64,000 nt of DNA, taken from assembly GCA_034432775.1 (NCBI GenBank), contig DAOUBH010000022.1, forward strand, positions 27,170 to 91,169, read 5' to 3'. Under the pieces are notes generated by a model that was not told the origin of the DNA, ran no database searches, and saw nothing but the letters and a program-made list of their open reading frames with translations. Below are positions 3,617 to 45,652 of the stretch, piece after piece; the first letter of the stretch is position 1; every line of letters begins with the position of its first letter. The position numbers and the translations under genes are program-made. This DNA is from Chloroflexota bacterium. Its GTDB lineage: Bacteria; Chloroflexota; Chloroflexia; DAOUBH01.

Positions 3617-3934
3617 AAACAGATAAAGCGCCAGCCATGCACCCCCTGTCGACCCAGCCCTTCCTGCTTACCCGTGCTGGCTGACTCCGACCAGGTTTCC
3701 CCACGGCGCCCAGGATTGCCCGCTTACCGTTGCTTCCTTCCGGACCTGGCGGGGTTCACGGGATCCTGCCGCGTAGGACCCAGCCTTCAACGTCGCCCGG
3801 CACGGGCAGTCCAACAAGAACCGGCCTCGAGGGGGACTTCGACCCCGCTACAGCGGATTGCGGGTACAGGGCACCGCTAGCTCCCCGTCTAGCATGGCTG
3901 GCATATCCATTATAACTGGACCCGCGGTCATCGG

Positions 3935-4837: not shown

Positions 4838-6175
4838 TCAGATCCCAGTTAAGGTCGCGAGGTCCTCAGGACGATCTACATCGACCAGTATGCCAGGATC
4901 GTTCACAGTTATCTCAACCACGGCCTCGGGCCACCGTGCTGCCACCTGCCGCCCACCAACATCCCCCTTTAAAGCAGAGAGCTCGGCGAAGAACTTCCGC
5001 GGAAAGAGCACGGGGTTACCCCGGCTGCCCTCAAACACCGGCACAATAATGCTCTCCGGATGATCCCTGTGGCTCCTCAACAGAAGGTCCACAGTGCTAG
5101 ACTGCAAAAGAGGCTGGTCTCCCAAGCAGAAAAGGACCGCTTCAACACCTGGATCGAGGGCGCCTAAACCTGCGCGCACGCTGCTGGCCAGCCCCTCGGC
5201 CCAATCACTATTCTCGACGAAGGTTATCGGTAGCCCCTGCAGCACCCGCCTGAGCTGATCGGCCTGGTACCCTCCCACTACAACGACTTCGCCCACCTCG
5301 GTGTTCAAGACGATTTTAACGCTCCTGCGAGCCATGGGCACCCCGTCTATCTCAGCCAGCTGCTTGGCACCCCCGAAACGTCTCCCCTGCCCCGCTGCCA
5401 GCAGCACAGCCGCCTTTCGACGGTCCACGGCTTCAATGCTGTCCCATGCTACAAGCAGCACCCCGAAAACCCCTGGCCGCGACAGCACCCAATGGGCGAA
5501 GTCCAGAGCCACCCGTCTATCCACAAGATTCACCTTGTTCAGCACCACCCATACGCGGGCCTGGCGTGGGACCCCCTTAAGACCGCCTTCGGGGTGGGTG
5601 ACAGCCAGCGCCACGATCTCCGGGGTGAGCTCATGGCCCTCCTTGAGACCCGTAAGGGACACGAAGGCTTCAAGGCGATGGACGACCTCGTCGGAAAGAG
5701 GCATGTTCAGAGCATCGGCGCCAACCAATACCAGTACCTTGTGGGACTTGGAAGGTATCACAGGCTCGTGCTCTGCTGGCACCTTGAGCGGCCTCCTGCG
5801 CGCCCCATCGCCCTCTACAACGGTGAGGTCCACGCCCGCTAAGCCCGCCAAAGTCTCGACTTCTTCGGGCTTTAGCCCATGAAGCTTATCATCCCTGATG
5901 CGGCTACCGACCACGGTGACATGGCCGTGACGTTGCAACCCGTCAAGTACCGTACCTTGGACGTCTTTGCTCTCATCAGCAATCACAAGAAAGGGACTTT
6001 GTGACTTGCCGGGCATCGAAATATTGGTGGTGGTAGTGGTCAATACCTTCCACCCCCTGGACGCCGCCTCGGCTGCCAGCCGAAACATCACTGTGGTCTT
6101 GCCACCCCCGCCCACCAACGTCACAATGTCGCCCCGGCGTACGTCCAGGGCCTCCATCAGAGTGGCGTAGTCCAT
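4838..6175 (-). CDS. fusion: YqeC-like selenium-dependent molybdenum hydroxylase accessory domain + MocA-like molybdenum cofactor cytidylyltransferase domain
   Basis: N-terminal half has VTLVGGGGKTT P-loop and VLTTTTT; C-terminal half has LLAAGQGRRFGGAK, NSDWAEGLASSVRAG, CLGDQPLL, SRGNPVLFP, VDVDRPEDL, matching the MocA/MobA nucleotidyltransferase fold. Confidence 0.65.
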   Translation of the reverse strand: MDYATLMEALDVRRGDIVTLVGGGGKTTVMFRLAAEAASRGWKVLTTTTTNISMPGKSQSPFLVIADESKDVQGTVLDGLQRHGHVTVVGSRIRDDKLHGLKPEEVETLAGLAGVDLTVVEGDGARRRPLKVPAEHEPVIPSKSHKVLVLVGADALNMPLSDEVVHRLEAFVSLTGLKEGHELTPEIVALAVTHPEGGLKGVPRQARVWVVLNKVNLVDRRVALDFAHWVLSRPGVFGVLLVAWDSIEAVDRRKAAVLLAAGQGRRFGGAKQLAEIDGVPMARRSVKIVLNTEVGEVVVVGGYQADQLRRVLQGLPITFVENSDWAEGLASSVRAGLGALDPGVEAVLFCLGDQPLLQSSTVDLLLRSHRDHPESIIVPVFEGSRGNPVLFPRKFFAELSALKGDVGGRQVAARWPEAVVEITVNDPGILVDVDRPEDLATLTGI

Positions 6176-11612: not shown

Positions 11613-12298
11613 TCTTCGACCTCTCCTCGAAAACCCAGCCGTGCATTATACCCCACACTCACGAGAAGCCCGCCCAGCTGCCCGTGCGAATTTGGCCAGA
11701 ACCTTTGTGCAGCCGAGGCGAGCATACCTCCGGTAATACCTAGCAGAGCAAGAAGGGACAGCATTGAATCTTCCTGCTTGGGGAGATAAAACTAAACGCA
11801 AGGCTCAGTGTATGCCCCAGCCCACGTTCAAGTTCGGCCGTGCAGGCTAGAGCGACTAGCATTTTTTTCTCCAGTGGGTCCCACCCTCGGGCCTCATCGG
11901 CTGCGAGAATACCTTAAAAAATTCTAGGACGTGGCCTATCTTCCCCCAGCTAACAACTATCGTATCGGTATGTAGTTCCGCAGAATCTGAGCTCTTGGCG
12001 CGCGTACGCCCGTGTACGATTGAAGGGCAGTGCCTACTGCCAGACAAGTCAAGCACTGTCAGGGACCTGCACAGTTAACACGAGGGCAGGAAGACGAAAA
12101 CCGATGGACGTATAGGGTTCGCGGTACGGGCAGCCTCCGAGCTTCGAATGATACCTTTAACCCGTTATATACATTGGTATATTGCCGTTAAATTCTGACG
12201 CAATCTTAAAAGATGCTACGCATAATGAAACAAGTAGGCTTTTGCACTTTCAACTCTGGTACAAAGACTTATCATGCCACAGGCGGGAGTGGCGGAGC

Positions 12299-15061
12299 AT
12301 GTCCGTGGTGTTTAAACCGGAAGTGAAGTGGGTACCAAGTTACTGTTATCAATGCAACGCGGGCGGACCAGATCTATTGCGCGTTAAGGTAGTAGACGGG
12401 GTAGCAGTAGGACTAGAGGGCAACCTTGATTTTGCTAGTGTCCATCCAGGCGGGGCAAAAGTGTGCGTCAAAGCATATGGGCTAATTCAGAAACATTATA
12501 ACCCAAATCGCGTCAAGGCCCCGCTGAAACGCACGAATCCTAAAAAGGGTCTGGACGAGGACCCTGGTTTCGTAGAGATCACATGGGATGAAGCCATCGA
12601 ACTGTGGGCCCAGAAACTCCTTGAGGTCAGGAGTCGAGGCATAGTAGACGAGAACGGTTATCCACGTGTCGCCTTCGCTGAGGGGTCTGATGGTGTTTGC
12701 CCTTCGTATTATGGCACCCTGCCAGTGATTTTCGGTGGCCTCTCACAGGCTCTAGGGCTCCCTCCCGGGATCTGGGGACCTACCGAATTTACCATGGCGC
12801 AAGGGGGCGGCGTGAAGTGTTACCACACCGAGCATCTGCTTGGGGAGCTGTGGCACAAAGGCTTCACGTGTGCTCAAGATACCCCACTCTGTGATTACAT
12901 CATTGCCATTGGCAGAAGTGACGACACGTCCTTCGGCGTCACGGGAGCGAAGCGCCAGGCTGAGGCCAGAGCCAGGGGATGGAAAAGGGTCCAAGTAGAG
13001 CCACACCTATCGGTAACCGGAGCTACATCTGACCGATGGGTCCCCATAAGGCCCGAGACCGATCATGCATTTCTTTTCGCTATGATCCATGTTGTCCTTC
13101 ACGAAATGAATTGGGCTGAAGTGTGTGACATCCACTTCTTGAAAACGATGACCAATAGCTCCTATCTGGTTGCGCCCGATGGCTACTTTCTGCGAGACCC
13201 GGTGTCCGAAAAGCCGCTAGTGTGGGACACCGTGGACCGAGCCGCCAAACCCTTCGATAGGGACGTGAAGGATCCCGCACTTGAAGGTGAATACGAGGTC
13301 GCCGGGATCACCCTTGGCCCAGACTCCAAAAGAAGCAGATTCGACCGCGTTTCGGTCAAGCCAGCCTTTCAACTGCTCATAGAACACGTGAAGACGTACA
13401 CGCCGGAGTGGGCATCAGAGATCTGCGATGTTCCTCCGCAAACCATTAGGGAACTGACGCATGAGTTCATTAGCCATGCAAGAGTAGGAGCAACCATCAC
13501 CGTCGACGGCATTGAAATGCCCTATAGGCCAGTGTTCATTGCCCTCGGCAAGACCCAGAATAACGGATGGGGCTCCATGCAGTGCGTCTGGGCAGCCCAC
13601 GTTTTGCAAATGCTCGTCGGCTCGTTGGAAGTACCTGGGGGACACTTAGGGACCCGGGTTCTGTTCTCAGGCCCGCCCAGAAGAACAGCTGATGGATTTC
13701 TCGAGTATCCCTTCAACCCGACAGACAAGGAGAACTGGCGGTTTCCTCCTGGCCGTAGGGATGGTGTGCCATCCCTCTGTCCACTGACAGGACCTTTTCT
13801 GGGCCCCATGCATCTGGGGTGGAAATGGACCGTGGACCCACCTCCACACTGGCCGGCTCCGAGCGTACCCGACATATTGATCACCTACAAGGTGAACCCG
13901 GTCATCTCGCAGTTCGATACACCAACTATCGTGGAGGTACTTCGCAGGATCCCCTTCCATGTGGCGTTTGCCTATACCCTGGACGAAACAGCTTGGTTCG
14001 CGGATCTCGTGCTACCAGAAGATGGAGACCTGGAAGCACTGCAGGTTTTCCCCATCGGCGCTACAACCTTTATGGAGAACTTTTGGGAGCATGTCGGACT
14101 CGCCATAAAGCAGCCTGCAGTACCACGGGCGAATAACACGCGGAACATTACCGACATAGCGACCGACTTGGCGGAAAAACTAGGAATGCTGGCTGCCTAC
14201 AACGAGGCCCTAAACCACGGCGCCTTCCTTGGATTTGTCTTGAAGGATACCCCGCACGAATTACAGCCAGACAAGAAATACACAGCGGAAGAGATCTATG
14301 ACCGAATCTGTAAGGTAGCTACTTACAACCTCAGTAGGGGATCGGAGGAATTCGGATTGGAGTGGTTTAAGGAAAAGGGAGCCTTCTTCGTTCCTTTCCC
14401 CAAGGTCGGTCCAGGGATAAGCCTGGGCCCGATTTACATGCGTCCATGGTACCTTTACCCCTACATGCGCCAGTCTGGCATCCGCTTCGAGCTCCCCTAC
14501 CAGGAAAGGTTGAAGAGGATCGGTGAAGAGCTTCAAGCACGCATCAGCGAGGCCAAGATAGACTGGTGGCAGGCACAGGCACACGAATACCAGGCATTGC
14601 CGAAATGGCACAGTACCAGCACAATCATCGACGATGTTATTGCCAAACGTTACGGGAAAAACCCAAATGACTACCCATTTTGGCTTCTTGCTACCCGAAG
14701 CATGCAATATGCTTGGGGATCCAACATAGCAGTTCCGCAGATGCATGAAGTAGCCGAGCGCGTGTTGGGTCACACGTGGGTTCAGATGAGCACCCAAGCG
14801 GGCAGGCTTCTCGGAATTAAGGATGGGGACGAAGTGTGGATTGAGTCTGCATATGGCAAGGCGCGAGGGAGAGTTAAGCTGAGGGAGGGAATCCGAGCAG
14901 ATGTTGTGTTGACAACGCAGATGTATGGCCACGTGAAAACCCCGTTCGCTAAGGATCTCAGACTCCCAAACCTCAATCAGATAGCTCCAGCGCTAGTGGA
15001 GTTAACCGACGAAACTGGGGGTTCTAAGGATCATGTCAAAGTGAAGGTATATAAGCCCTAA
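12299..15061 (+). CDS. molybdopterin oxidoreductase catalytic subunit (DMSO reductase/MopB superfamily), no Tat signal
   Basis: ~920 aa; N-terminal C-x2-C-x3-G-x33-C (YCYQCNAGG...KVCVKAYG) at the position of the MopB FS0 cluster motif; no RRxFLK motif; ATG 12299 after GGGAG; long ORF from 12182 is likely upstream extension. Confidence 0.8.
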   Translation: MSVVFKPEVKWVPSYCYQCNAGGPDLLRVKVVDGVAVGLEGNLDFASVHPGGAKVCVKAYGLIQKHYNPNRVKAPLKRTNPKKGLDEDPGFVEITWDEAIELWAQKLLEVRSRGIVDENGYPRVAFAEGSDGVCPSYYGTLPVIFGGLSQALGLPPGIWGPTEFTMAQGGGVKCYHTEHLLGELWHKGFTCAQDTPLCDYIIAIGRSDDTSFGVTGAKRQAEARARGWKRVQVEPHLSVTGATSDRWVPIRPETDHAFLFAMIHVVLHEMNWAEVCDIHFLKTMTNSSYLVAPDGYFLRDPVSEKPLVWDTVDRAAKPFDRDVKDPALEGEYEVAGITLGPDSKRSRFDRVSVKPAFQLLIEHVKTYTPEWASEICDVPPQTIRELTHEFISHARVGATITVDGIEMPYRPVFIALGKTQNNGWGSMQCVWAAHVLQMLVGSLEVPGGHLGTRVLFSGPPRRTADGFLEYPFNPTDKENWRFPPGRRDGVPSLCPLTGPFLGPMHLGWKWTVDPPPHWPAPSVPDILITYKVNPVISQFDTPTIVEVLRRIPFHVAFAYTLDETAWFADLVLPEDGDLEALQVFPIGATTFMENFWEHVGLAIKQPAVPRANNTRNITDIATDLAEKLGMLAAYNEALNHGAFLGFVLKDTPHELQPDKKYTAEEIYDRICKVATYNLSRGSEEFGLEWFKEKGAFFVPFPKVGPGISLGPIYMRPWYLYPYMRQSGIRFELPYQERLKRIGEELQARISEAKIDWWQAQAHEYQALPKWHSTSTIIDDVIAKRYGKNPNDYPFWLLATRSMQYAWGSNIAVPQMHEVAERVLGHTWVQMSTQAGRLLGIKDGDEVWIESAYGKARGRVKLREGIRADVVLTTQMYGHVKTPFAKDLRLPNLNQIAPALVELTDETGGSKDHVKVKVYKP

Positions 15062-15082
15062 GACAAGGGGAGGGTACTTGCC

Positions 15083-15733
15083 GTGGCACGATGGGGAATG
15101 GCCATCGACCTCAGGAAATGCAACGGATGTCAGACGTGCACCGTAGCATGCAAGATCGAGAATTTCACCCCAAAGGGTTTGCTTTGGGGACAAGTTTACG
15201 ATTATGAGACCGGGCAGTATCCCACAGTCCAACGCCGCTTCCTTCCCGCCCTTTGTATGCACTGTGAAAGTCCGCCATGCAGAGACGTGTGCCCGACAGG
15301 CGCCACCAAAAAGAGAGAAGACGGAATCGTTTATGTCGATTATCAGAGGTGTACCGGTTGCCAGGCATGTGCCTTAGCCTGTCCGTACGAAGCGCGCTTC
15401 CTCTACACGGAACGGGATGGGTATTTTGACCGACGCAGAACCCCATACGAACAGTTCCCATACGAGTGGAGAGCACCATCGCAACGGTTTACGAACGGAA
15501 CCATGACGAAATGTACCTTCTGTATGCACCGGATAGATCAACACCCAAATAAGCGTCCAGGTATAGATCCGGAGGCCACACCTGCCTGCGTCGTTGCCTG
15601 TATCACCGGAGCACGGATCTTCGGTGATCTGGACGACTCAGAGAGCGAGATCAACAAGGTAATCCGGGAACGACGCGGCTTCACACTGCTGCCTGAGCTC
15701 GGGACTGGGCCTTCCGTGTATTACTTGCCCTAA
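15083..15733 (+). CDS. 4Fe-4S ferredoxin-type electron-transfer subunit of molybdopterin oxidoreductase
   Basis: Four Cys clusters: CNGCQTCTVACK, CMHCESPPCRDVCP, CTGCQACALACP, CTFCMH...CVVAC; GTG start 9 nt after GGAGG. Confidence 0.85.
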   Translation: MARWGMAIDLRKCNGCQTCTVACKIENFTPKGLLWGQVYDYETGQYPTVQRRFLPALCMHCESPPCRDVCPTGATKKREDGIVYVDYQRCTGCQACALACPYEARFLYTERDGYFDRRRTPYEQFPYEWRAPSQRFTNGTMTKCTFCMHRIDQHPNKRPGIDPEATPACVVACITGARIFGDLDDSESEINKVIRERRGFTLLPELGTGPSVYYLP

Positions 15734-15753
15734 AAGCGAAGCTCTAATAGGGT

Positions 15754-16605
15754 GTGTGGGAGGTAAAGGCAGTGATTTCCATCCATGGTCAGAGAAACTG
15801 GGGTTTCACGACAGCTCTGGCAATGTTCCTCGAGGGGAGCTGTGGCGCCACTACGGTAAGCGGAATACTTCTAGGCAATCTACCCATGGTAATACTTGGG
15901 GTAGCCCTCGGAATGGCAGCCGGCTTGATCCTTTTACTTGAGCTCGGAAATCCGAAAAATGCAATCTGGTTACTTGCAGGCATACGTCATGCTTGGATTT
16001 CGCGAGGTACTCTCCTACTACTGTTAGTCATTGTTTTTGGCCTTGCATACGCTCTCGTCGGCCTGCCAACTGTGGGCGCCCCGCCCGTCTTAAGCGTAGT
16101 CGCGGGTGTCACCGCTGGAATCGCAGGCCTCTTGCTGACACTGTACCCAGGGTTCCTGCTCGCTTCGTTCAAGCCCATACCGTTGTGGCATTCGGCCTTG
16201 TCGCCCATTCTCTCTTTCGGCATTAGCGCCCTAGGCGGTTTCGGCGTAACTTTGGTCATGTCCCCACTGGTAACTGTAAATGCAGTACAGATGACGATTC
16301 CTGCAGTGTCAGGTGCAGTGGTCTTTCAAGCCGTGGCGTGGTGGGCATTTATCGACACAGCGCTAAAAGGTAGCGTTACAGAATCCCACGGAGCTAGGGT
16401 GCTATTGGGGCTACCTGTCTTCTCAGCTGGGGCCATCGCGGTTGGCTTGGCATTACCTGGAGTAATCATGGTTTTAGCGTGGGCCGCAGGCGTTACATCA
16501 CTTCCGTTGTATGTCGTAGCAGGGGTATGTCTGCTTGCTGGAAGTCTAAGCGCTAGGTACGCCCTATTAAGGGCTGGTGTGCGATTGCGGTGGCAGCCGG
16601 CCTAG
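15754..16605 (+). CDS. integral membrane anchor subunit (NrfD/PsrC/DmsC-like) of molybdopterin oxidoreductase
   Basis: 283-aa protein with ~8 hydrophobic helices directly downstream of the catalytic and FeS subunits. Confidence 0.6.
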   Translation: MWEVKAVISIHGQRNWGFTTALAMFLEGSCGATTVSGILLGNLPMVILGVALGMAAGLILLLELGNPKNAIWLLAGIRHAWISRGTLLLLLVIVFGLAYALVGLPTVGAPPVLSVVAGVTAGIAGLLLTLYPGFLLASFKPIPLWHSALSPILSFGISALGGFGVTLVMSPLVTVNAVQMTIPAVSGAVVFQAVAWWAFIDTALKGSVTESHGARVLLGLPVFSAGAIAVGLALPGVIMVLAWAAGVTSLPLYVVAGVCLLAGSLSARYALLRAGVRLRWQPA

Positions 16606-17299
16606 CCTGGAACCGAAGGCAGCCTCAGCCTCCATTCTGCCGCGGGACACGCGAATGAGGCCAGGACTGTCCCGGGAGTTATATGGAAGCTAACGGAGGA
16701 TATCCGAGCAAATCCCCAGATCCATCAAACTAATAGATCATTAACCGGTGAGGCAAAGGGGTTCTTGCATCAGCCGGGCGCTCAGAATGGGGAGCCAGCA
16801 CCCTACTTGGCTCTGGTGCGGCTACTGATTGGTCTGAGGGGGTCTGACAGGTAGAGTATACCCTCTTCTACCCCCATCACATATCCTTCTTGCTGCTCAA
16901 TGGCCGATCTCCCCATAAACCAAGTACCGTAATCATGCATCACATCGAGACCATACCAGCCACGCCACGAGGTATCGCGATAGAGCCAAAGCCTAGGTAG
17001 CCGTCGATACACATCGGGGGAGGACTTTCCACGGGTTCTAATACGGACTCCGGTTGCTAAGGGTGAAACGGCTCACGGAGGGAGAGCCTCAGGCCAAGGC
17101 CATCCACACCAGTAGTGCAGATAGGGGTGCAGTTCACCAACCGTCGCTCAGCTCCTTCAAAGCAAGTTAAGGCGTCTCCATCGTCCTTGGCCCCGACATT
17201 GGGGCTCGAACTGAAAGGGATTGACCTCCATGATACAATCTACTGTGGAGTTCGACCCATACCTTTTCGCTAAAAACCCCAAGTCTAGGTAGATGGACT

Positions 17300-18082
17300 G
17301 TGTTGACCCACGCCTTTATCCAGATCCGCGGCCTCACTAAGGTCTATTTGTCAGACCACGGACAAGTGCTCGCCCTCGACGGCATAGACCTGGACATAGC
17401 AGAGAAGGAGTTCGCTTCCATCCTGGGACCCAGCGGCTGCGGCAAGAGCACCCTCATTATGCTCATAGCAGGCCTCATACGCCCCACATCGGGAAGCATA
17501 ACCATAAACGGCAGACAGATCGATGGTCCATACACTGATCTGGGGATAGTCTTTCAGCGGGACGTTCTCCTGGACTGGCGAAATGTACTGGACAACGTAT
17601 TGCTCCAGATCGAGATCCGCAGGCTGAAACGATCCGATTATGAGAAAGTTGCCCTTCAGCTCCTCGACAGGGTCGGTCTGGGCGAATTCACTACAGCCTA
17701 TCCCAGGGCCCTGTCGGGAGGCATGCGCCAACGGGTAGCCATCTGCAGGGCCCTTGTCCACGACCCGCCTCTCCTGCTTATGGATGAGCCCTTTGGAGCC
17801 CTCGACGCCCTCACTAGAGACCAGATGTCCCTAGATCTTATGCGCATCTGGGAACAGACCCATAAGACGGTACTCTTTGTGACCCACAGCATACCCGAGG
17901 CTATCTTCCTTTCCGACAGGATTATCGTCATGTCGCCGCGTCCAGGCCGCATCGTAGAAGACATCCGCATCGAGCTGCCCAAGCCGCGACGCTTGGCCGT
18001 GCGCGATACCCAGGACTTCGCCGACTATGATCGCCACATCCGGGAGATCTTCATGGCCCAGGGTGTGCTGGTCGAAGGATAG
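17300..18082 (+). CDS. ABC transporter ATP-binding protein (NitT/TauT family)
   Basis: Walker A GPSGCGKST, signature LSGGMRQR, Walker B LLLMDEPFGALD, H-loop VTHS. Confidence 0.85.
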   Translation: MLTHAFIQIRGLTKVYLSDHGQVLALDGIDLDIAEKEFASILGPSGCGKSTLIMLIAGLIRPTSGSITINGRQIDGPYTDLGIVFQRDVLLDWRNVLDNVLLQIEIRRLKRSDYEKVALQLLDRVGLGEFTTAYPRALSGGMRQRVAICRALVHDPPLLLMDEPFGALDALTRDQMSLDLMRIWEQTHKTVLFVTHSIPEAIFLSDRIIVMSPRPGRIVEDIRIELPKPRRLAVRDTQDFADYDRHIREIFMAQGVLVEG

Positions 18083-18102
18083 ACGTTTGGCAGGAGGAAT
18101 GT

Positions 18103-18930
18103 ATGGCTGAAGGTGTCACAGCTGTTAAGGTCGAGCAGAAACCACGGCCTCGCGCAAACCTTAAGGACTACTACTATCCCGTGGCAGCTGCGATCGCGTT
18201 CCTTCTCTTGTGGGAGGGAATTGTCCACCTGCTGAATATCAAGCCCTACCTGCTGCCAGCACCGTCAAACATCCTTCAAAAGCTGACCGGCCAGTGGGGA
18301 ACCATCTGGGACTACACGCTCGTCACCGGATTCGAGGTGTTGCTAGGCTTCCTGCTGAGCATAATCGTGGGCATACCGTTGGGCATGGTCATATTCTATG
18401 TAAAGGCCCTGGAGAGGGTTATCTATCCCTTTCTAGTGGCATCTCAGACTATCCCCAAGGTAGCCATCGCACCACTTTTGGTGATCTGGTTCGGTTTCGG
18501 TCTTACGCCCAAGGTGATCGTGGCCTTCTTGATAGCCTTCTTCCCCATAGTGGTCGATACTGTGGTAGGGCTGAAAAGCACCCCTCCAGAGATGATCTAT
18601 CTAGTAAGATCCATGGGAGCCAACAGGCTCCAGACCTTCCTGAAGATCAGTTTGCCCAATGCCCTCCCCAATATATTCGGCGGCTTGAAGGTCGCCATCA
18701 CTTTGGCGGTAGTGGGTGCTGTGGTGGGAGAGTTCATAGGTGCCGATAGGGGCCTCGGTTACCTCCTTGTGGTCGCCAACGGCTACCTCGATACCCCCCT
18801 GGTCTTCGCTGGGATCATTGTCCTCAGCCTCATGGGCATATTTCTCTTCTTCGTCATTGAGATCATCGAACGCCTCCTAATGCCTTGGAGATCCGAAGAG
18901 CAGACGGAGATAGTCAGGGGGACCATGTGA
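18103..18930 (+). CDS. ABC transporter permease (NitT/TauT family)
   Basis: Polytopic membrane protein; EAA-like region RSMGANRLQTFLKISLPNALP. Confidence 0.85.
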   Translation: MAEGVTAVKVEQKPRPRANLKDYYYPVAAAIAFLLLWEGIVHLLNIKPYLLPAPSNILQKLTGQWGTIWDYTLVTGFEVLLGFLLSIIVGIPLGMVIFYVKALERVIYPFLVASQTIPKVAIAPLLVIWFGFGLTPKVIVAFLIAFFPIVVDTVVGLKSTPPEMIYLVRSMGANRLQTFLKISLPNALPNIFGGLKVAITLAVVGAVVGEFIGADRGLGYLLVVANGYLDTPLVFAGIIVLSLMGIFLFFVIEIIERLLMPWRSEEQTEIVRGTM

Positions 18931-20321
18931 GGCAGAAACACCAGCAGGAAGCAGATCTGCTCGTCCTGGGGGAATGGATCCTCCTGTCAGCAAACGATGC
19001 CCTACAACGGGGAGCCATAGCGGTACGGGACGGCCTTATAGTCGATGTTGGTCCCCAACGAGATGTTATGGAACGGTACCGCGCCAAGAGGGTCATCGGC
19101 GGCGCCGATAGGATCGTTGCTCCCGGGCTAATAAATACCCATACCCATCTCTTTCAGACCTTCCTCCGCGGATTGGGCGAAGGGCTGCCATTGCGCACCT
19201 GGGTCGAGCGAGTAACTACCCCTGCTGCCCTTGCCATGACCTGGGAAGACGCCTACCTGTCGGCTGCCCTGGGCCTCATCGAGGCCCTTCACTCCGGAAC
19301 TACGGCTGTCTTCGAGTATGGGTACGCCTTTCCAGATCCATCCCTGCACGAGGCCACCTTGAAAGCTTTCCTCGATGTGGGAGTGCGTGGCTGGTTGGGG
19401 ATAGGTGTCAACGATGCTGGGATTGAGTTCGGCGTCCATCCGGCATTCATTCAGACCGTCGATGAGGCTCTGAAGAAGGTGGACGATTTGCGTGTCGCGA
19501 TGGCCAGGCTTGGCCAGATGCCGGTCCAGTTAGCCCTCGTCTCGGGAAGCATCAGAGGCCTATCTTCCCAGGGCGTCAGGGCCTTCCATGGGTACGCAGA
19601 GGCCAACGGTCTACTCTATTCCCTCCACCTCAAAGAGATACCCCAGGACGACGAAACAGCCCTGCTGCGTTTCGGTACCAGGGCAGTGCCGTGGCTCGCT
19701 GATTGCGGGGTCCTCAAGCCTAATCTCCTCGCTGTCCACTGCGTGTGGCTCAACCAGGAGGACATAGACCTCCTGGCTGAGGGCCGCTCCTCTGTGTCCC
19801 ACAACCCCGTCAGCAACATGTATCTAGGTGCGGGGATAGCTCCAGTGGCAGAGTTGCTGCAACGTGGGATCGCAGTAGGCTTAGGCACCGACGGGCCAGC
19901 AAGCAACAACAGCATGGACATGCTCCAGACGCTGAAGTTCTCCATACTGGGACAGCGAGCCCGAAAGGCCTCGCCCGATATCATAACCTCGAGGGACGGC
20001 TTCCGCATGGCTACGGAGGACGCTGCCCGGGCCTTGGGGGTCGAGGGTCTTCTTGGACGCATCGCTCCTGGATATGTGGCCGATATTGTTGTTTTCCGCA
20101 CCGATACCTTCCAGGGAGTCCCTTGCCATGACCCCTACGCTACGTTAGCCTTCTCAGCCGGTTGTGGCTCCGTAGAGACCGTGATGGTCGGAGGGCGGAT
20201 CGTTCTAGAGGAGGGTCTGGTCAAGACCCTCGATGAAGCCGACATCGTGGCTAGGGCATCGACAGCAGCCAAGGATCTGGTCCAGCGAGCAGGCATACCC
20301 GCAGGAGTGTTCGTGAGGTGA
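18927..20321 (+). CDS. metal-dependent amidohydrolase (cytosine/guanine deaminase or chlorohydrolase-like)
   Basis: APGLINTHTHL metal-binding HxH, later HCVW and GLGTDGPASNN; GTG start overlaps permease stop (GTGA). Confidence 0.75.
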   Translation: MRQKHQQEADLLVLGEWILLSANDALQRGAIAVRDGLIVDVGPQRDVMERYRAKRVIGGADRIVAPGLINTHTHLFQTFLRGLGEGLPLRTWVERVTTPAALAMTWEDAYLSAALGLIEALHSGTTAVFEYGYAFPDPSLHEATLKAFLDVGVRGWLGIGVNDAGIEFGVHPAFIQTVDEALKKVDDLRVAMARLGQMPVQLALVSGSIRGLSSQGVRAFHGYAEANGLLYSLHLKEIPQDDETALLRFGTRAVPWLADCGVLKPNLLAVHCVWLNQEDIDLLAEGRSSVSHNPVSNMYLGAGIAPVAELLQRGIAVGLGTDGPASNNSMDMLQTLKFSILGQRARKASPDIITSRDGFRMATEDAARALGVEGLLGRIAPGYVADIVVFRTDTFQGVPCHDPYATLAFSAGCGSVETVMVGGRIVLEEGLVKTLDEADIVARASTAAKDLVQRAGIPAGVFVR

Positions 20322-21345
20322 TCTCGGGCATCACCATGAATCCCGATGCCGATCCCCAGGTGTTGAAAGCCATAGCCCGACAGGTGGAGGAGCTCGGATT
20401 CTCCTACTGCTACGTTGCCGACCAAGGCCTGAGTCGCGACGTATATGTGACACTGTCCAACCTGGCCGCCTCCACCACAAGCCTACGGTTGGGCCCTGGA
20501 ATCACTCACCCCTATGTGCGGCACCCGGCCGCCACAGCCGTGGCCATAGCGACCCTAGATGAGCTATCCCACCACAGGGCCTTCCTGGGCATAGGAGCCG
20601 GTGGCACCCGCGCCCTCGCCCCCTCAACATCGACAGAAGAGAGCCACTCCGCGCCTGCACCGAGGCAGTGGAAATTGCGCGACGGCTCTGGACCGGCCAA
20701 CCCGTAGACTTTTCCGGCCGCTACTTTCAGCTTAGAGGCGCCCGCATCAACTTTCCTTGCCGGCACAATATAGAGGTACACTGGGCTGCCCGGGGTCCCA
20801 AGATGCTACGCCTGGGCGGTGAACTGGCTGATGTAGTTTTCCTCCATGGAAACCCCCACAGCGAGATAGCTGAAGCTGTGCGCCATGTTCGGGCGGGAGC
20901 CCTTGAGGCCCAACGGAAAGTGAGGATTCACCTGGCACTGCCAATAATCTATGATCAGGCCTCCTTCGAGAGCGGACGCTTAAGGACAGCTTGCAGGTTG
21001 GTCGATCTCACTGAGGATGCCAGGAGGAGGCTGGACATATCCACACAGCTCCATTCCAGGATCAGGGAGCTGGTGCTATCGTCGCAGCTCGAGTCCGCTG
21101 CACAGCTTGTGGAGCCTGAACTGGTCAGGCAATTTGTAGTCGACGCCACAGACCCGGAGTCGCTTCGCGATCTGGCCAGGACCATAGCTTCTCTCAACTT
21201 GGACGGCTTTATAGTGGAGATCAGTAACCCGTACCTGGCTGCAACTATACTTCCCGTGGCCCATCAGGTCATCGCCAAGACCATGCAGCTGCTCAAGGAC
21301 CAAACTACTGGTAGTCCACAAACCTATCAGGGAGGTGTCCCATGA
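20318..21345 (+). pseudogene. F420-dependent LLM-class (luciferase-like/Mer-like) oxidoreductase, reading frame broken by apparent -1 frameshift in a C5 run (20619-20623)
   Basis: N-terminal frame ...LGPGITHPYVRHPAATAVAIATLDELSHHRAFLGIGAGG (Mer-like); C-terminal part continues in another frame as PLNIDRREPLRACTEAVEIARRLWTGQPVDFSG...; one extra C would restore GAGGTRALAPLNIDRREPL. Confidence 0.6.
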
Positions 21346-22424
21346 GGCGTTTCAGAGGCTTACGGTGGTATCAGATCCTCACACTACTCGTGCTAGGGCT
21401 CTTTCTAGTTGCCTGCAGCCAGCCAACACCGGCACCCCCGGCCGGAGCCCAGGCAAGCCCAGCGCCCAGCCCAGCACAGCCTACCCCGACAGCCAAGCCG
21501 GCACCCGACAAGGTCACCCTCAGGCTCTCATGGCGGTGGAAGGCCGAGTTTGCACCCCTGGTCCTTGCTGACGACAAAGGCTTCTTCAAGGAAGAGAACA
21601 TTGAAGTGCAGCTCCTCGAAGGCAAGGGGTCTGGTGATGTAGTCCCCCTCATAGCCAACAAGACCGACACCTTCGGCTACCTTAATCTCACCACGGTGGC
21701 GATAAGCACAGCTAAAGGTCTACCCGTAAAGGTTGTGGCCGGTCTTATGGCTAAGAACCCTTCAGCTCTGGCCTTCTTCGCTGAGAAGAACATAAAGCAA
21801 CCCAAAGACCTAGAGGGCAAATCCATTGCCCTGACACCGGGTGAGGCCTTCGCCGTCATTTGGCCAGCTTTCGCTAAGAAATGGGATATCGATACCTCCA
21901 AAGTCACCACCGTCAACCTCGACCCCAGCGTTAAGAATCAGGCGTTCCTGGAAGGACGCATCGATGTACTTCCTGTCTATGTGAACAACGAGCTGCCTCA
22001 GATCCGCTACCAGGCCAAGAAGCCCATCGACATCCTCACGCCAGCCGATTGGGGCTTCAACACCATAGCCAACGGGATCATCACCCACGTGGACACCATC
22101 AAAGAAAAACCCGACCTGGTACGCAGGTTCGTCCGCGCCGTAGCTAAGGGTTACAAGTACGCAATCGACCATCCAGACGAGGCAGTAGCCGCCGTGTCCA
22201 AGCGGTCAGATGCCCTTGCCAGCCAGCCGAAGGAGGTGCTCCTCGAACAGGTCACAATGACCTTGGACTTTATGTACAGTCCCAACAACAAGGGCAAGCC
22301 CATCGGATGGATGGCCGATGAAGACTGGACCGCTACCATCGACCAACTCTTCCAGACCGGCGCCATCGATAAAAAGCTTCCCAACGACACCTTCTACACG
22401 AACGATTTCGTACCCAAGGAGTGA
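21342..22424 (+). CDS. ABC transporter substrate-binding lipoprotein (NMT1/THI5/SsuA-like)
   Basis: Signal peptide with lipobox LFLVAC-S, Pro/Ala-rich linker, periplasmic binding protein body; start overlaps LLM stop. Confidence 0.8.
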   Translation: MRRFRGLRWYQILTLLVLGLFLVACSQPTPAPPAGAQASPAPSPAQPTPTAKPAPDKVTLRLSWRWKAEFAPLVLADDKGFFKEENIEVQLLEGKGSGDVVPLIANKTDTFGYLNLTTVAISTAKGLPVKVVAGLMAKNPSALAFFAEKNIKQPKDLEGKSIALTPGEAFAVIWPAFAKKWDIDTSKVTTVNLDPSVKNQAFLEGRIDVLPVYVNNELPQIRYQAKKPIDILTPADWGFNTIANGIITHVDTIKEKPDLVRRFVRAVAKGYKYAIDHPDEAVAAVSKRSDALASQPKEVLLEQVTMTLDFMYSPNNKGKPIGWMADEDWTATIDQLFQTGAIDKKLPNDTFYTNDFVPKE

Positions 22425-22439
22425 ACTAACTAGAGGCCA

Positions 22440-22826
22440 GTGGAAAAGAGGTTCGTTAATCCAGCCGAACTGCATGCTCCCTTGGGAGCTGGCTGCCACG
22501 TAGCTGTGGCCGGCAGGACCATCTACGTGGCAGCCCAGCTTCCCTTGGACAAAGACGGTAACCTCGTCGGGCCCGGCGACCCTGTGGCTCAGGCCGAGCA
22601 GGTGTTCCGAAATCTGCAAGCAGCCCTTCGGGCCGTGGATGCCAACCTGGGGGATGTCGTCAAACTCACAACATATCTGAGAGACCTGGAGCATCGCCCC
22701 TTGGTCATGGAAGTACGTAATAGGTTCTTCGGTAGCCACCGCGCCCCGAGCACCCTGGCCCTGGTCGTAGACCTCCCGGTGCCGGGGGCTCTCCTCCAGA
22801 TCGACGCTATAGCCGTGAAGGACTGA
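22440..22826 (+). CDS. RidA/YjgF/Rid-family protein (paralog 1)
   Basis: 128 aa; RidA core (...IYVAAQLPLDKDGNLVGPGDPVAQAEQVFRNL...LLQIDAIAV). Confidence 0.85.
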   Translation: MEKRFVNPAELHAPLGAGCHVAVAGRTIYVAAQLPLDKDGNLVGPGDPVAQAEQVFRNLQAALRAVDANLGDVVKLTTYLRDLEHRPLVMEVRNRFFGSHRAPSTLALVVDLPVPGALLQIDAIAVKD

Positions 22827-22828
22827 TC

Positions 22829-23227
22829 ATGTGGGCCCGTAAAACTATTTCGCCCCCACAGAACCCGAGGCCCACCAGTTACTACTCCCATGGAGTCCTT
22901 GCAGGTCCGTGCCTCTATACTGCTGGCCAGACCTCCAGGGACCCCCACGGAAACCTTGTGGGGTCGGACAGCATAACTCTTCAGGCTGCCCAAGCTCTCC
23001 GCAACCTGAACAACGTACTGAACGAAGCAGGCATGACACCTTCCGACATCGTGTTCCTTCGTGTGTTCCTCAGGCGAGCCGAAGACTTTGAGGCTGTTTC
23101 GCAGGCCCTGAGGGCCTTCTTGGGCAGCCACACCCCTGCTATCACCGTAGCCATCGTAGAAGGGTTAGCATACCCCGAATACCTTCTGGAGATAGAGGCC
23201 ATAGCCGCAGCAGGGGACCCGCCATGA
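22829..23227 (+). CDS. RidA/YjgF/Rid-family protein (paralog 2)
   Basis: 132 aa; ...LYTAGQTSRDPHGNLVGSDSITLQAAQALRNL...LLEIEAIA. Confidence 0.85.
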   Translation: MWARKTISPPQNPRPTSYYSHGVLAGPCLYTAGQTSRDPHGNLVGSDSITLQAAQALRNLNNVLNEAGMTPSDIVFLRVFLRRAEDFEAVSQALRAFLGSHTPAITVAIVEGLAYPEYLLEIEAIAAAGDPP

Positions 23228-23607
23228 AGCAGCGGATCTCAGTACCGTCCATACATCGACCGACCACCTATTACTCTCATGCCATCGTAGTAGACGGGTG
23301 GGTGTACACGGCCGGCCAGGCTCCGCACCGTCCCGACGGAAGTGTCTGGGAGCCATCGGACCCTGAGGGCCAAATTCGCCAGGTATGGGAGAACATGCGC
23401 GAAGTCCTCGAGGCCGCTGGCTCGAATCCTGAGAATATCCTTCGCCTCGTCGTGCTGCTCAAGGACAGGGACCTCGTGCCTCTCTTCTGGAAAGTCTCCA
23501 GCGATTACTTGGGGACTTGCCGCCCGGCTACATCGCTGGCCGTGGTGAAGGGTATGGCCGATACCCGCTATCTAATAGAGATGGAGGCCATTGCGCTGTG
23601 CCGCTGA
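23224..23607 (+). CDS. RidA/YjgF/Rid-family protein (paralog 3)
   Basis: 127 aa; ...VYTAGQAPHRPDGSVWEPSDPEGQIRQVWENM...LIEMEAIA; ATGA overlap with paralog 2. Confidence 0.85.
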   Translation: MKQRISVPSIHRPTTYYSHAIVVDGWVYTAGQAPHRPDGSVWEPSDPEGQIRQVWENMREVLEAAGSNPENILRLVVLLKDRDLVPLFWKVSSDYLGTCRPATSLAVVKGMADTRYLIEMEAIALCR

Positions 23608-23702: not shown

Positions 23703-25016
23703 CTAGTCCCCCTGGCACAGGACCTCTAGATCTTCCCAGAAGCCAGGATACGAGATATTCACGCACTGAGGGTCCGAGATCGAAGTCTCCCCGTGGGCCA
23801 CCAGACCTGCTACGGCCAGGGCCATGGCCATCCTATGATCTCCGTAGCTGTTCACAGCTGCCCCTCTGAGCTTCGCTGGTCCATAGATGCGGAGACCATC
23901 GGGCAACAGATCTATCTTAGCTCCCATGCGGCCCAGCTCCGTGGCTACAGCCAGCAGTCTATCGGTTTCCTTGTAGCGCAGTTCCTGGGCACCCCGGATG
24001 GAACTTACCCCTTCCGCAGCACACATAGCCACGGCCAGGATCGGCACCTCGTCGATTAACCGGGGGACCTCTTCAGGCACAATATCCGTTGCTCGTAACG
24101 TGCTACTAACAACGCGTAGATCTGCCAAGGGCTCCCCGCCTGTAGTCCTCAAGTTATTAGTCGTCACCTGGCCGCCCATCCTGCGCAGCACATCCACTAC
24201 ACCTGCACGAGTAGGGTTAACACCTGTGCCAAGCAGCTCAATATCTGCGTCGGAATGTATGCACCCTGCCACGAGCCAGAAGGCTGCCGATGAGATATCG
24301 TTGGGAACTACCACAGACAAAGGCTGCAAATCCTTCCCACCTCTCACGTAGATCGAGCCATCCTCGGACCGCAGGTCGGCGCCCATGGATCGGAGCATGC
24401 GCTCGGTATGGTCCCTTGAGGCTGTCTTCCCATATATCACTGTCTCGCCGGAGGCCATAAGGCCGGCCAGCAGCAGGGCAGACTTCACCTGTGCTGAGGC
24501 CACGGGCAGCTCATAGGATATAGCCTTGAGGTCGCCCCCCATTACAGCTATGGGAAGTCTTTCACCTCCCTGGCGTCCCCAGATGCGGGCACCCATAGAC
24601 CTAAGGGGAGCCACTACCCTGCCCATGGGTCGCGAACGAAGCGAGGCATCGCCAGTTAGCACCGCGAATAAGGGCTGGGCGGAGAGCATACCCAGCACCA
24701 GACGAGCCGTCGTGCCCGAATTGCGGGCGTCCAGTACGTCTTGGGGTTCCTGTAGCCCCTGCAGGCCCACCCCATGGACCCTCACAATCCAACGTCGGGA
24801 AGACTTGGCAACTACTTCGAGGGTCACCCCGAGGTGCTCTAGAATTTTCATGGTAGCCAAGCAGTCATCCCCGGGCAGAAAGTTCTCGACTAGGCTCTCA
24901 CCAACAGCCAGGGCTGGCAACAGAAGTGCCCTGTGAGATATCGATTTGTCTGGGGGCACTTCAACCCTACCTTTCAGGCCCGAGGGCGGCCGCACAACCT
25001 TGATGTCCCCACTCAT
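23703..25016 (-). CDS. aroA: 3-phosphoshikimate 1-carboxyvinyltransferase (EPSP synthase)
   Basis: N-terminus GRVEVPPDKSISHRALLL, later LGTGVNPTRAG; 437 aa. Confidence 0.95.
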   Translation of the reverse strand: MSGDIKVVRPPSGLKGRVEVPPDKSISHRALLLPALAVGESLVENFLPGDDCLATMKILEHLGVTLEVVAKSSRRWIVRVHGVGLQGLQEPQDVLDARNSGTTARLVLGMLSAQPLFAVLTGDASLRSRPMGRVVAPLRSMGARIWGRQGGERLPIAVMGGDLKAISYELPVASAQVKSALLLAGLMASGETVIYGKTASRDHTERMLRSMGADLRSEDGSIYVRGGKDLQPLSVVVPNDISSAAFWLVAGCIHSDADIELLGTGVNPTRAGVVDVLRRMGGQVTTNNLRTTGGEPLADLRVVSSTLRATDIVPEEVPRLIDEVPILAVAMCAAEGVSSIRGAQELRYKETDRLLAVATELGRMGAKIDLLPDGLRIYGPAKLRGAAVNSYGDHRMAMALAVAGLVAHGETSISDPQCVNISYPGFWEDLEVLCQGD

Positions 25017-25453
25017 ACCAGAGAGTACCTGTCTCGCTTATAGTCATCCAGAAAGACTGCGCAGCTGTCACACAAAACCACATAGCCCTTTCGCATACGG
25101 GTGCCGGCTAGGGTCTTGTGCCTGTAGGAGTATCCATAACGGGACACATGGCGCGAGCAGTAGTAGACTCTACATCTGTCACAGGAAGTCAGCGAAAGGC
25201 CACCACAACCTTCCCAACCACAAAGCCCTTTGGCGTTAAGGGAAGCGCCCACTTGCCTTCGGCGTTGTTCCAATATTTCCCCGGCCTCTCGGGCCGCATC
25301 CCGCCAGAAAGCAGGAAGGCAACCGAGGCAGACCCTCCTGTTGACATCGCCGTGGGCCACGCAGAAGTATCGGCCACAGTAGGTACAACGATCCACGGGC
25401 TCACGCCTGCAGGCAAGTACCCGAAGTCGTTTCGTCTCACACGTGAGGGCCAT
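25013..25453 (-). CDS. cysteine-rich hypothetical protein with two C-x2-C-x4-C-x2-H ... C-x2-C repeats (zinc-ribbon-like)
   Basis: 146 aa, 14 Cys; CTYCGRYFCVAH...CLGC and CDRCRVYYCSRH...CDSC; stop overlaps aroA start (ATGA); 12 bp downstream of aroC. Confidence 0.5.
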   Translation of the reverse strand: MALTCETKRLRVLACRREPVDRCTYCGRYFCVAHGDVNRRVCLGCLPAFWRDAAREAGEILEQRRRQVGASLNAKGLCGWEGCGGLSLTSCDRCRVYYCSRHVSRYGYSYRHKTLAGTRMRKGYVVLCDSCAVFLDDYKRDRYSLV

Positions 25454-38993: not shown

Positions 38994-39364
38994 GAGCTCT
39001 GGCCAGCAGCTATATCCCTCCCTCTAATGGACGACGGGCAACGGCCCTTTCCCAAAGGCTGGAATGCACCGTCTCCCTGGACTGCATCTCGCCAGCCTAA
39101 TCTGGCTCAACTTAAGTGGCGCCAGGGCGCCCCGCTTCGTGCAACTTGGCAGCCGGTCGCCTGTCTGCTACAGTCAGTCTTCGGATCCCGCTGCCCAATA
39201 TCTGCCATACATCTGATGGCTGGATGATGCGACGAGCTACAGCAGCTCTCAAACCTAAGCTGCCGGGGTACGGAATAGCTTCACCATGCTTTTGCCATAT
39301 AAGGTTGTCCGACCCCCCAGTGAAGGGTACAATTACCCCAGCTCCGGAGTACAATGCGACGGAA

Positions 39365-40165
39365 ATGGTGCCTATTATAGCTGTCGCCAACCAGAAGGGC
39401 GGCGTAGGCAAGACGACCACCGCTGTAAACCTAGCAGCCTGCCTTCAAGAGCAGGGCAACAGGGTGCTGCTGGTTGACCTTGATCCGCAAGGCAACGCTA
39501 CCAGCCACCTGGGCTTAGATAAGCATAGATATGGCCGAAACATCTACGACCTGCTGTTGGCCGAGCAACCCCACAGCAAACCGGTTGTGACCGTGCGCCG
39601 AGGCTTGGATATAGTTCCATCCAACGCCCACTTGGCAGGCGCCGAACTGGAGATGACCGCACTGCCCGACAGAGAATCGCGTCTCAAGGAACGCCTCTTT
39701 CCGTTGACCGAGGGCTACGATGTTGTCCTTATAGATTGCCCACCGGGTCTGGGCCTCTTAACGGTAAATGCCCTGGCGGCAGCCAGCCGCATCCTTGTAC
39801 CTCTTCAGTGCGAGTATCTAGCTCTCGAAGGCCTCACCCAGATTCAAGAAACCGTGCGATTAGTGCGCCGTAGGCTCAATCCCCAGGCCAGGCTATGGGG
39901 CATCTTGATGACCATGTACGACGGACGCACTAACCTGGCAGCGCAAGTAGTGCGCGAAGTACACTCGTACTTTTCCGACATTCTCTTCAATACCGTGATC
40001 CCGCGCAGCGTTCGCCTCAGCGAAGCCCCCAGCTATGGGATGTCCATCGTCGATTACGACCCTGGTTCCAGAGGCGCCCAGGCGTACCGTAACCTGGCCA
40101 AGGAAGTATTGGAGAGACTGAGTACAGAAGGGCTCTCCAATCTCAGGAGGATGCAACTTGCCTAA
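39365..40165 (+). CDS. parA: ParA/Soj partition ATPase
   Basis: Deviant Walker A VANQKGGVGKTTTAVNLA; LVDLDPQGNAT; ATG 39365 (track ORF from 39116 is upstream extension). Confidence 0.9.
   Translation: MVPIIAVANQKGGVGKTTTAVNLAACLQEQGNRVLLVDLDPQGNATSHLGLDKHRYGRNIYDLLLAEQPHSKPVVTVRRGLDIVPSNAHLAGAELEMTALPDRESRLKERLFPLTEGYDVVLIDCPPGLGLLTVNALAAASRILVPLQCEYLALEGLTQIQETVRLVRRRLNPQARLWGILMTMYDGRTNLAAQVVREVHSYFSDILFNTVIPRSVRLSEAPSYGMSIVDYDPGSRGAQAYRNLAKEVLERLSTEGLSNLRRMQLA

Positions 40166-42812: not shown

Positions 42813-45652
<2,840 letters not shown>

Follow-up and report, generated by a model that had tools for sequence, protein, structure and literature searches.

What compound does a compact, one-strand operon of the Chloroflexota bring into the cell and begin to degrade? 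The question is raised by eight genes on contig DAOUBH010000022.1 of a Chloroflexota bacterium (GenBank assembly GCA_034432775.1), analyzed here within a stretch of 64,000 nucleotides (positions 27,170 to 91,169 of the forward strand; hereafter the window, numbered from its first letter). The genes encode an ATP-binding cassette (ABC) importer, a metal amidohydrolase, an oxidoreductase of the luciferase-like monooxygenase (LLM) fold and three Rid-fold proteins, and an earlier note had read them as a putative system for N-heterocycle uptake and catabolism. Available information suggests that this gene cassette would import an N-heterocyclic base, most likely an oxidized or aminated base of purine type, and start its breakdown, a reading to which we would give a probability of roughly 45%; 2,8-dioxopurine, urate, 8-oxoguanine or a relative would be the most likely candidates. 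The features on which the argument turns are:

16606..17299, + strand: non-coding leader/promoter region of 694 bp, without an open reading frame (ORF) of at least 70 amino acids (aa)
17300..18082, + strand: ABC ATP-binding subunit, NitT/TauT type (PF00005, 1.7e-31)
18103..18930, + strand: ABC permease, NitT/TauT type (PF00528, 3.4e-32)
18927..20321, + strand: COG0402-type (TRZ/ATZ, deaminase-like) metal amidohydrolase (PF01979, 2.7e-51)
20318..21345, + strand: Mer-like, F420-class LLM oxidoreductase by homology, frameshifted, probable pseudogene (PF00296 across two ORFs)
20619..20623, + strand: C5 homopolymer, site of a 1-nucleotide (nt) deletion in the LLM gene (an added C restores the frame)
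21342..22424, + strand: NMT1/THI5/ThiY-like substrate-binding lipoprotein (PF09084, 7e-53)
22440..22826, + strand: Rid-fold protein 1 (orthogroup R1), without Arg105 (PF01042, 2e-22)
22829..23227, + strand: Rid-fold protein 2 (orthogroup R2), without Arg105 (PF01042, 6e-26)
23224..23607, + strand: Rid-fold protein 3 (orthogroup R3), without Arg105 (PF01042, 7e-21)

As delimited by an ORF scan, the string at 17300-23607 runs on the forward strand from ATPase, permease, amidohydrolase, LLM and binding protein to the three Rid-fold genes, and its members are joined throughout by 4-nt overlaps or short gaps. The ATPase and permease genes are 20 nt apart, the permease ATG being preceded by GGAGG; the amidohydrolase starts at GTG 18927 in a GTGA overlap with the permease stop, in agreement with the N-termini of its orthologues, the LLM gene starts at 20318 through another GTGA overlap (4 nt), and the binding-protein gene starts at 21342 through an ATGA overlap with the LLM gene. 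A gap of 15 nt leads to the first Rid gene and one of 2 nt to the second, which overlaps the third by 4 nt. The cassette is a real, translationally coupled operon, and the layout, coordinates and junctions given for it in the earlier note stand, as do the gene labels, with which the Pfam domains agree; the LLM gene, described there as one ORF, lies in two frames because of a 1-nt deletion.

The arrangement recurs in other genomes. The eight-gene order is complete in L001, L002, L004, L005, L006 and L171, where the flanks are unrelated, and partial or variant cassettes are found in L003, L089, L090, L091 and L093, the amidohydrolases of these other loci being 45-66% identical; three shorter metagenome contigs hold partial copies, and L172 retains the amidohydrolase-LLM pair alone. 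In the seven contigs inspected for the proteins P0002, P0003, P0007, P0008, P0009, P0017 and P0025, the order is invariably ATPase-permease-amidohydrolase-LLM-binding protein-Rid, amid neighbors without any relation to one another: genes for P450 and beta-oxidation, for glycolysis, for DnaA and a two-component system, or sugar genes. Because the gene order recurs amid entirely different flanking genes, the arrangement is far beyond chance. The cassette is conserved in about a dozen contigs of Anaerolineae (Chloroflexota), and its named relatives are Anaerolineae or Chloroflexota. Only about 28 clusters, among 5.8 billion proteins, share at least 45% identity with the amidohydrolase. A scan of genome contigs with the single amidohydrolase found no relatives, one with the family alignment (generic patterns) gave 80 loci at 40% identity or less, none of which carries the cassette, a result of use only as a negative control; L087 and L088, with amidohydrolase homologues at 43% identity, are also without it. 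A dnaA gene lies directly upstream of the cassette in L006 (3162-4499) and of the amidohydrolase-LLM pair in L172 (8526-9863), and in the window parA/parB (39116-41015) and gyrB (42813-44759) are located downstream of it at a distance of 16-20 kb; there is thus a tendency for the cassette to be located close to the replication origin.

Two of these loci connect the cassette with purine-type catabolism. In L089 it is preceded by genes for a helix-turn-helix (HTH)-cupin regulator and a dihydropyrimidinase/D-hydantoinase (TIGR02033, 476 bits against a cut-off of 393) and followed by genes for an SsnA-like amidohydrolase, YgeY (NF009555, 394 against 321), the FAD subunit of a xanthine dehydrogenase (XDH) and an XdhD/XdhA-like Fe-S/Mo subunit; SsnA is the top match of the SsnA-like paralog, at 245 bits and below the cut-off. 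In L172 the amidohydrolase-LLM pair is convergent with the gene for an XDH-family Mo subunit. These neighbors lend weight to the broad notion that an N-heterocycle is taken up and degraded. More specifically, the HyuA-type, YgeY, SsnA-like and XDH-subunit genes of L089 make up part of the reductive uric-acid cluster, in which, as Li et al. have shown (bioRxiv 10.1101/2025.05.19.654654), urate is broken down by way of 2,8-dioxopurine through the action of XdhD, YgfK, SsnA, HyuA, YgeY, YgeW and YgeX. In this pathway, reconstituted in 2025, XdhD reduces urate to 2,8-dioxopurine and YgfK (or UacX) dearomatizes the product; ring opening then falls to SsnA followed by HyuA, removal of the ureido groups to YgeY and YgeW/UacY, and YgeX yields pyruvate. 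It has been reported that the unfavorable reduction must be pulled by SsnA hydrolysis, that the reductase and SsnA genes are co-located, and that Chloroflexota clusters contain no YgfK/UacX and instead a putative F420-dependent LLM (Li et al., bioRxiv 10.1101/2025.05.19.654654).

With the reductive uric-acid cluster (Li et al. 2025; Liu et al. 2025, bioRxiv) the cassette shares a reductase gene placed beside that of a COG0402 amidohydrolase, like YgfK-SsnA, an LLM protein of the PF00296 F420 class flagged for Chloroflexota by Li et al. and, in L089, its embedding among HyuA-type, SsnA-like, YgeY and XdhD/XdhA-like genes. It differs in that its amidohydrolase is not SsnA, in that XdhD, SsnA, HyuA, YgeY and YgeX are not near most loci, and in the addition of a dedicated ABC importer and of two or three Rid-fold proteins; neither 'RidA' nor 'transporter' occurs in the text of Li et al. 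In the window itself, 11 kb upstream of the cassette, a gene at 4838-6175 (- strand) encodes YqeC (TIGR03172, 171 against 73) fused to a MocA/YgfJ-like cytidylyltransferase (155 against 186). YqeC-MocA-like proteins function in the maturation of selenium-dependent Mo hydroxylases, MocA/YgfJ being a molybdenum-cofactor cytidylyltransferase, and the yqeC/mocA-type accessory genes of E. coli belong to the xdhD/ssnA cluster. The fusion suggests that a selenium-dependent Mo hydroxylase is encoded somewhere in the genome, and it is weak support for a purine-type substrate.

As regards uptake, the importer is of the NitT/TauT type (TC 3.A.1.17), as had been claimed, with PF00005, PF00528 and PF09084 all well above their gathering cut-offs, and the binding protein carries a lipobox (LVAC) followed by a Pro/Ala/Thr-rich linker. 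The nearest NCBIfam models are TauB (238 bits) and SaoA for the ATPase, and SaoP, TauC and SsuC for the permease, all below cut-off. That TauB, TauC and the SsuA family head the list, and that SsuD is among the matches of the LLM protein, might suggest uptake and desulfonation of an organosulfonate (taurine or an alkanesulfonate) of the Ssu/Tau type. Yet the Tau, Ssu, Sao and nitrate equivalog scores of the transporter are all far under their cut-offs (TauB 238 against 357, TauC 129 against 342, TauA 50 against 304, SsuA family 69 against 163.5, SsuC 95 against 347), the LLM protein matches the methylene-tetrahydromethanopterin (methylene-H4MPT) reductase Mer at 4e-38 and SsuD only at 1e-15, no SsuE is present, and Ssu/Tau systems make no use of an amidohydrolase or of Rid proteins. 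A sulfonate substrate is extremely improbable, and what the earlier note had named as fatal to its reading, a plain sulfonate operon or a gene neighborhood confined to this genome, is not what was found.

The transporter is also the most conserved part of the cassette. Its ATPase is 67-87% identical across orthologous cassettes, and when the window, L001 and L002 are compared, identities are 83-95% for all three transporter proteins (ATPase, permease and binding protein), as against 54-83% for the enzymes and Rid proteins. Within the cassette the binding-protein orthogroup spans 57-93% identity, the next nearest metagenome binding proteins reaching at most 35%, and a scan of metagenome contigs with the binding-protein alignment returned four close loci only, the remainder being binding proteins at 35% identity or less. 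Since the transporter is so conserved and the orthogroup of its binding protein so sharply bounded, a fixed and specific ligand is argued for.

The nearest structures to the binding protein are 4NMY (7e-23) and ThiY (3IX1, 1e-18, 70.7 bits), TauA and SsuA being much weaker, which agrees with the ThiY/THI5-like assignment made earlier; 4NMY is a generic structural neighbor for which no ligand information was found in the literature. ThiY and THI5 are the nearest characterized proteins, the chemistry of the amidohydrolase is of deaminase type, and many binding proteins about 30% identical to that of the cassette adjoin dihydropyrimidinase-like genes. These points would fit the salvage or catabolism of a thiamin pyrimidine, such as hydroxymethylpyrimidine (HMP), formylaminopyrimidine (FAMP) or aminomethylpyrimidine (AmMP), or of a simple aminopyrimidine, which a ThiY-like system would import and the amidohydrolase would deaminate or deformylate, in line with the pyrimidine/HMP idea of the earlier note. 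We consider this unlikely, as tenA, thiD and ylmB are in none of the loci, the extended loci point to the purine-type genes XDH, SsnA and YgeY, no Rfam riboswitch, of thiamin pyrophosphate (TPP), HMP-PP or any other type, reached its gathering threshold in the window or in any of five orthologous loci, and the NMT1/THI5 annotation is misleading for such transporters, as others have warned (PMC7373994). The cassette and the formylaminopyrimidine transporter ThiXYZ/ThiY do share a NitT/TauT-type ABC system with an NMT1-fold protein that recognizes, in the cassette putatively, a heterocyclic base, and ThiY is the closest characterized structure; the match is distant, however, and the cassette has no TPP riboswitch, YlmB or TenA and is associated with other enzymes. 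A separate arrangement, binding protein-dihydropyrimidinase/hydantoinase-like-ATPase-permease, was observed in the metagenome loci L097, L099, L102, L104, L119, L122, L126, L128 and L138, with NMT1-type binding proteins about 28-34% identical to that of the cassette; it is a distinct and more common transporter-hydrolase module.

In the leader (16606-17299), the Rfam models for TPP, HMP-PP, xanthine/NMT1 and purine riboswitches were without a match, and within 16550-17350 no Rfam match appeared even at E<=1. In Proteobacteria, xanthine riboswitches have been shown to control transporter genes of the NMT1/THI5-like and TauA types as well as COG0402 amidohydrolases (PMC7373994). This, like the dihydropyrimidinase-like neighbors of the related binding proteins, is an independent hint at a purine-type substrate. 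The cassette differs from these operons in having neither the NMT1 motif nor another riboswitch, while they carry dioxygenases, have no LLM or Rid genes and belong to another phylum. Comparison of the leader with the upstream regions of orthologous loci revealed no conserved small ORF and no sequence conservation; the gaps upstream of the cassette are also long in L001 and L002 (about 740-970 bp), again with no conserved sequence. One promoter-like site lies at 17211-17239, the number of such sites being at chance level, and the promoter and terminator scans gave chance-level results only.

The amidohydrolase has the complete single-metal, deaminase-type site of COG0402, that is HxH on strand 1, the His of HxxE on strand 5, His on strand 6 and Asp on strand 8. 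Its residues H72xH74, H234xxE237, H271 and D322 are invariant in 27 family sequences and the motifs align with those of 4F0R, so the earlier assignment to this class is confirmed. Its family is harder to name. Over its full length it is matched best by methylthioadenosine/S-adenosylhomocysteine (MTA/SAH) and deoxyadenosine deaminases, by AtzA and by 8-oxoguanine deaminase, with scores roughly half of what these families require, and no NCBIfam equivalog cut-off is reached (MTA/SAH 286 bits against 609, the top match; 5'-deoxyadenosine 273 against 522; 8-oxoguanine 241 against 532; guanine 124 against 375). Automatic annotation at JGI, like the MTA/SAH and 5'-deoxyadenosine deaminases that also lead the full-length PDB matches, would make the enzyme an MTA/SAH/5'-deoxyadenosine deaminase that salvages nucleoside by-products, the other genes being unrelated baggage. 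Besides the low scores, the active site speaks against this: directly after HxH the family has an invariant Gln (HTHLFQT), as do 2PAJ (HHHLFQS) and AtzA (HTHVNQI), whereas the solved MTA/SAH/adenosine deaminases carry HxHxxM. We take 2PAJ to be an isoxanthopterin deaminase, and the equivalent Gln of guanine deaminase presumably contacts the base. As HxHxxQ agrees with 2PAJ and AtzA and not with HxHxxM, a free heterocyclic base is favored over a nucleoside. In addition, the tight coupling and conserved synteny with the LLM, binding-protein and Rid genes argue for a single pathway, and the cassette accompanies none of the 80 generic relatives (40% identity or less); nucleoside salvage is accordingly quite improbable. 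A 43%-identical paralog of the amidohydrolase was noted in L088 (L088:3956-10404) directly after the genes of a methenyl-H4MPT cyclohydrolase homologue (PF02289), of 2-oxoacid dehydrogenase E1/E2 and of a GntR regulator, with a Bmp-type (nucleoside) ABC transporter nearby; it is a further case of an H4MPT-pathway enzyme fold beside this amidohydrolase family.

The LLM protein appears to belong to the F420 class and to resemble Mer, as had been proposed: the nearest PDB entry to the repaired protein is the F420-dependent Mer, and its NCBIfam matches are mostly F420-class families, several FMN-dependent (flavin mononucleotide-dependent) families such as SsuD scoring weakly too. With 87 and 42 bits for the two fragments against 348.7 (TIGR03555/NF002619), it is Mer-like, not Mer. 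A second LLM paralog (P0148, 346 aa), 50% identical to the repaired protein, lies outside L089 on a contig equal in length to that of L089 (37,218 bp) and so probably on the same one (Ga0643530_0001263). In the window, the gene is split between 20318-20707 (129 aa, frame 2), which covers PF00296 positions 21-110, and 20668-21345 (225 aa, frame 1), which covers positions 132-308. With one C added to the run at 20619-20623, the two pieces become a protein of 342 aa that reads ...GAGGTRALAPLNIDRREPL... at the junction; six intact orthologues, 322-344 aa in length, are colinear with this repaired protein (...GIGAGGTRALAPLNIDRREPL...) and align across the junction without gaps. Both fragments are present as called proteins in NCBI and in the Logan assembly of SRR11582145, whose contig SRR11582145_294 is 100% identical to the window over 2848 nt, C5 run included. 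Because this independent assembly has the same run, the lesion is in the reads and is not the artefact of one assembler; a systematic homopolymer error is possible if both assemblies share reads. The repaired protein is 55% identical to the outgroup L005 and the intact proteins of L001 and L002 are 54% and 53% identical to it, so that the window copy is no more diverged and the lesion is recent; the deletion is apparently genuine. Programmed frameshifting was considered and rejected, as the orthologues are in frame, no X XXY YYZ slippery heptamer is present and the site is not conserved. In L171, a separate deletion of about 32 nt (L171:9184-10120) has cost the LLM protein its conserved IELHWAARGPK segment and shifted the frame; it apparently occurred between short direct repeats (GGCCCGAT), and the other cassette genes are intact.

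Given the frameshift, the reductive step is probably lost or impaired in this genome. It may even be that the operon is here a decaying remnant, with an LLM pseudogene and a pathway that no longer works, a substantial possibility though short of even odds, and one compatible with, and not exclusive of, import and breakdown of a purine-type base by the cassette. The presence of the frameshift in two assemblies and the independent disruption in L171 fit such decay; the intactness of all other genes, with their family-invariant residues kept, does not, and neither does a lesion so recent or, should the assemblies have used the same reads, possibly a shared sequencing error.

The three Rid-fold proteins form the orthogroups R1, R2 and R3, which occur in fixed order with orthologues 44-73% and paralogs about 30-40% identical; R2 is absent from L089, where only R1 and R3 are found. 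Their PF01042 fold and, for the most part, the equivalents of Tyr17 and Glu120 are shared with RidA, but Arg105 is absent from all three paralogs, in 17 of the 17 sequences covering the position. R1 has Ser (or Pro) there, and Ala for Gly31, in all orthologues, R2 has Ile, Val or Leu, and R3 has Thr, Val, Ala or Ile together with an invariant Trp at the position of Asn88; the numbering is that of E. coli, with E. coli and B. subtilis sequences as the references. In RidA, Arg105 binds the substrate carboxylate. It has been demonstrated that this Arg is essential for imine hydrolysis, and the Arg-less subfamilies Rid4-7, with no known function, have been termed 'mysterious' (Niehaus et al. 2015, PMC4433059). 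Scores are below the RidA cut-off (TIGR00004, 58-70 bits, 66 for Rid-1, against 106) and the RutC cut-off (TIGR03610, 40-51 bits against 169), and no other rut genes are present. Since Arg105 is absent and neither cut-off is reached, RidA-type imine/enamine deamination is unlikely, and the earlier view of three RidA proteins quenching imines and enamines is not supported. A limited literature search on Rid heterotrimers found no description of three distinct Rid paralogs in fixed tandem order.

The same evidence bears on a Rut-like oxidative cleavage of pyrimidines, in which the LLM protein would be a RutA-type monooxygenase and the Rid proteins RutC-type aminoacrylate deaminases. An LLM-fold enzyme and a Rid-fold protein do share one N-heterocycle operon in the Rut pathway (RutA-G), as they do here, and RutC is a weak match for all three Rid proteins. 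However, besides the missing arginine and the distance from the RutC model, Mer, an F420-dependent reductase, is what the LLM protein matches most closely, with RutA missing from its matches, the transporter is of another type, and all loci lack a flavin reductase as well as equivalents of RutB, D, E, F and G. We regard a Rut-like route as very improbable; the analogy drawn in the earlier note is superficial, no RutA, B, D, E or F equivalents being present, and the YgfK/SsnA step is the better analogue.

The purine-type reading can be set out as a sequence of four putative steps. First, the lipoprotein would bind the base, and the permease and ATPase, whose NitT/TauT-type domains are evident, would import it. 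Second, the amidohydrolase, with its complete metal site, may attack an amidine carbon, either by exocyclic deamination that would feed a dioxopurine route or by SsnA-like ring opening. Third, the Mer-like protein, with F420H2, might reduce (dearomatize) the ring as a counterpart of YgfK/UacX, a step suggested by homology, by the gene context in L089 and by the proposal of Li et al. 2025. Fourth, and speculatively, the Arg-less Rid paralogs, possibly as a mixed R1-R2-R3 trimer, could process a downstream ring-opened intermediate. What the sequences show directly are the identities of the domains, the motifs of the active sites, the translational coupling, the synteny and the associations seen in L089 and L172; the class of ligand, the use of F420 and the order of these steps are what we infer.

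Several observations weigh against the purine-type reading. A link with XDH, SsnA, HyuA or YgeY is seen in only 2 of about 12 loci, most cassette loci standing alone, and the 64-kb window contains no XDH, HyuA, YgeY, YgeX, YgeW or PydA-type genes: a tblastn search of it with the XdhD-like, HyuA-like, YgeY and SsnA-like proteins of L089 gave the cassette amidohydrolase as sole match, and Pfam scans of nearly all its ORFs of at least 90 aa detected no PF01315, PF00291, PF00185 or PF01180. The characterized protein nearest to the binding protein, ThiY, is a binder of thiamin pyrimidines. The amidohydrolase scores 183 against 455.5 (TIGR03314) and 189 against 444 (NF005540) with the SsnA models, and its exact step is unclear, because it is outside the SsnA family and because an SsnA-like paralog coexists with it in L089. 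The use of F420 by the LLM protein is presumed from homology, no F420 biosynthesis genes are visible within the 64-kb window, and, as the LLM gene was disrupted on separate occasions here and in L171, the rest of the cassette can be kept without the reductive step. Finally, the Rid proteins are without the sole residue known to be necessary for Rid catalysis.

A bolder version, which is rather unlikely, would have the cassette encode an undescribed F420-dependent degradation of purine-type rings in Anaerolineae, with the LLM protein as a dearomatizing (isoxanthine-type) reductase and the Rid paralogs as an obligate heterotrimer with new catalysis on the ring-opened product. If true, Arg-less Rid proteins would have their first assigned function, and a heteromeric Rid enzyme would be known for the first time.

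Other features of the window were recorded alongside the cassette. Between the glycolysis genes and the cassette lies a three-gene molybdopterin oxidoreductase operon (12182-16605, + strand), whose products are a catalytic subunit (959 aa) that resembles PhsA/QrcB/ArrA, a 4Fe-4S subunit and a membrane subunit that is polytopic and has no match in Pfam or NCBIfam; the operon is absent from L001, which is otherwise syntenic. An ORF of 146 aa between aroA and aroC (25013-25453, - strand) has no family match, and the ORF at the same position in L001 (135 aa) has no Pfam match. A bacterial signal recognition particle (SRP) RNA of the large type (RF01854, 195 bits) is encoded at 3635-3897 (- strand).

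An ABC importer joined to catabolic enzymes for an N-heterocycle is known already, as is, from one sentence of a 2025 preprint, the substitution of an F420-dependent LLM in Chloroflexota; what is new is a compact and bounded cassette with a ThiY-like importer, a COG0402 enzyme other than SsnA, a fixed triad of Arg-less Rid proteins and recurrent loss of the LLM gene. If the purine-type reading is true, the cassette would be a compact, testable candidate for the F420-dependent reductive purine degradation that Li et al. 2025 only inferred for Chloroflexota, would supply a dedicated high-affinity importer for that pathway and would give Arg-less Rid proteins a defined genomic context. Knowing which ligand is bound by the binding protein, itself highly conserved, would reveal what substrate the entire pathway serves. 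In digesters, sediments and wastewater, where Anaerolineae are abundant, the cassette would therefore bear on the turnover of N-heterocycles.

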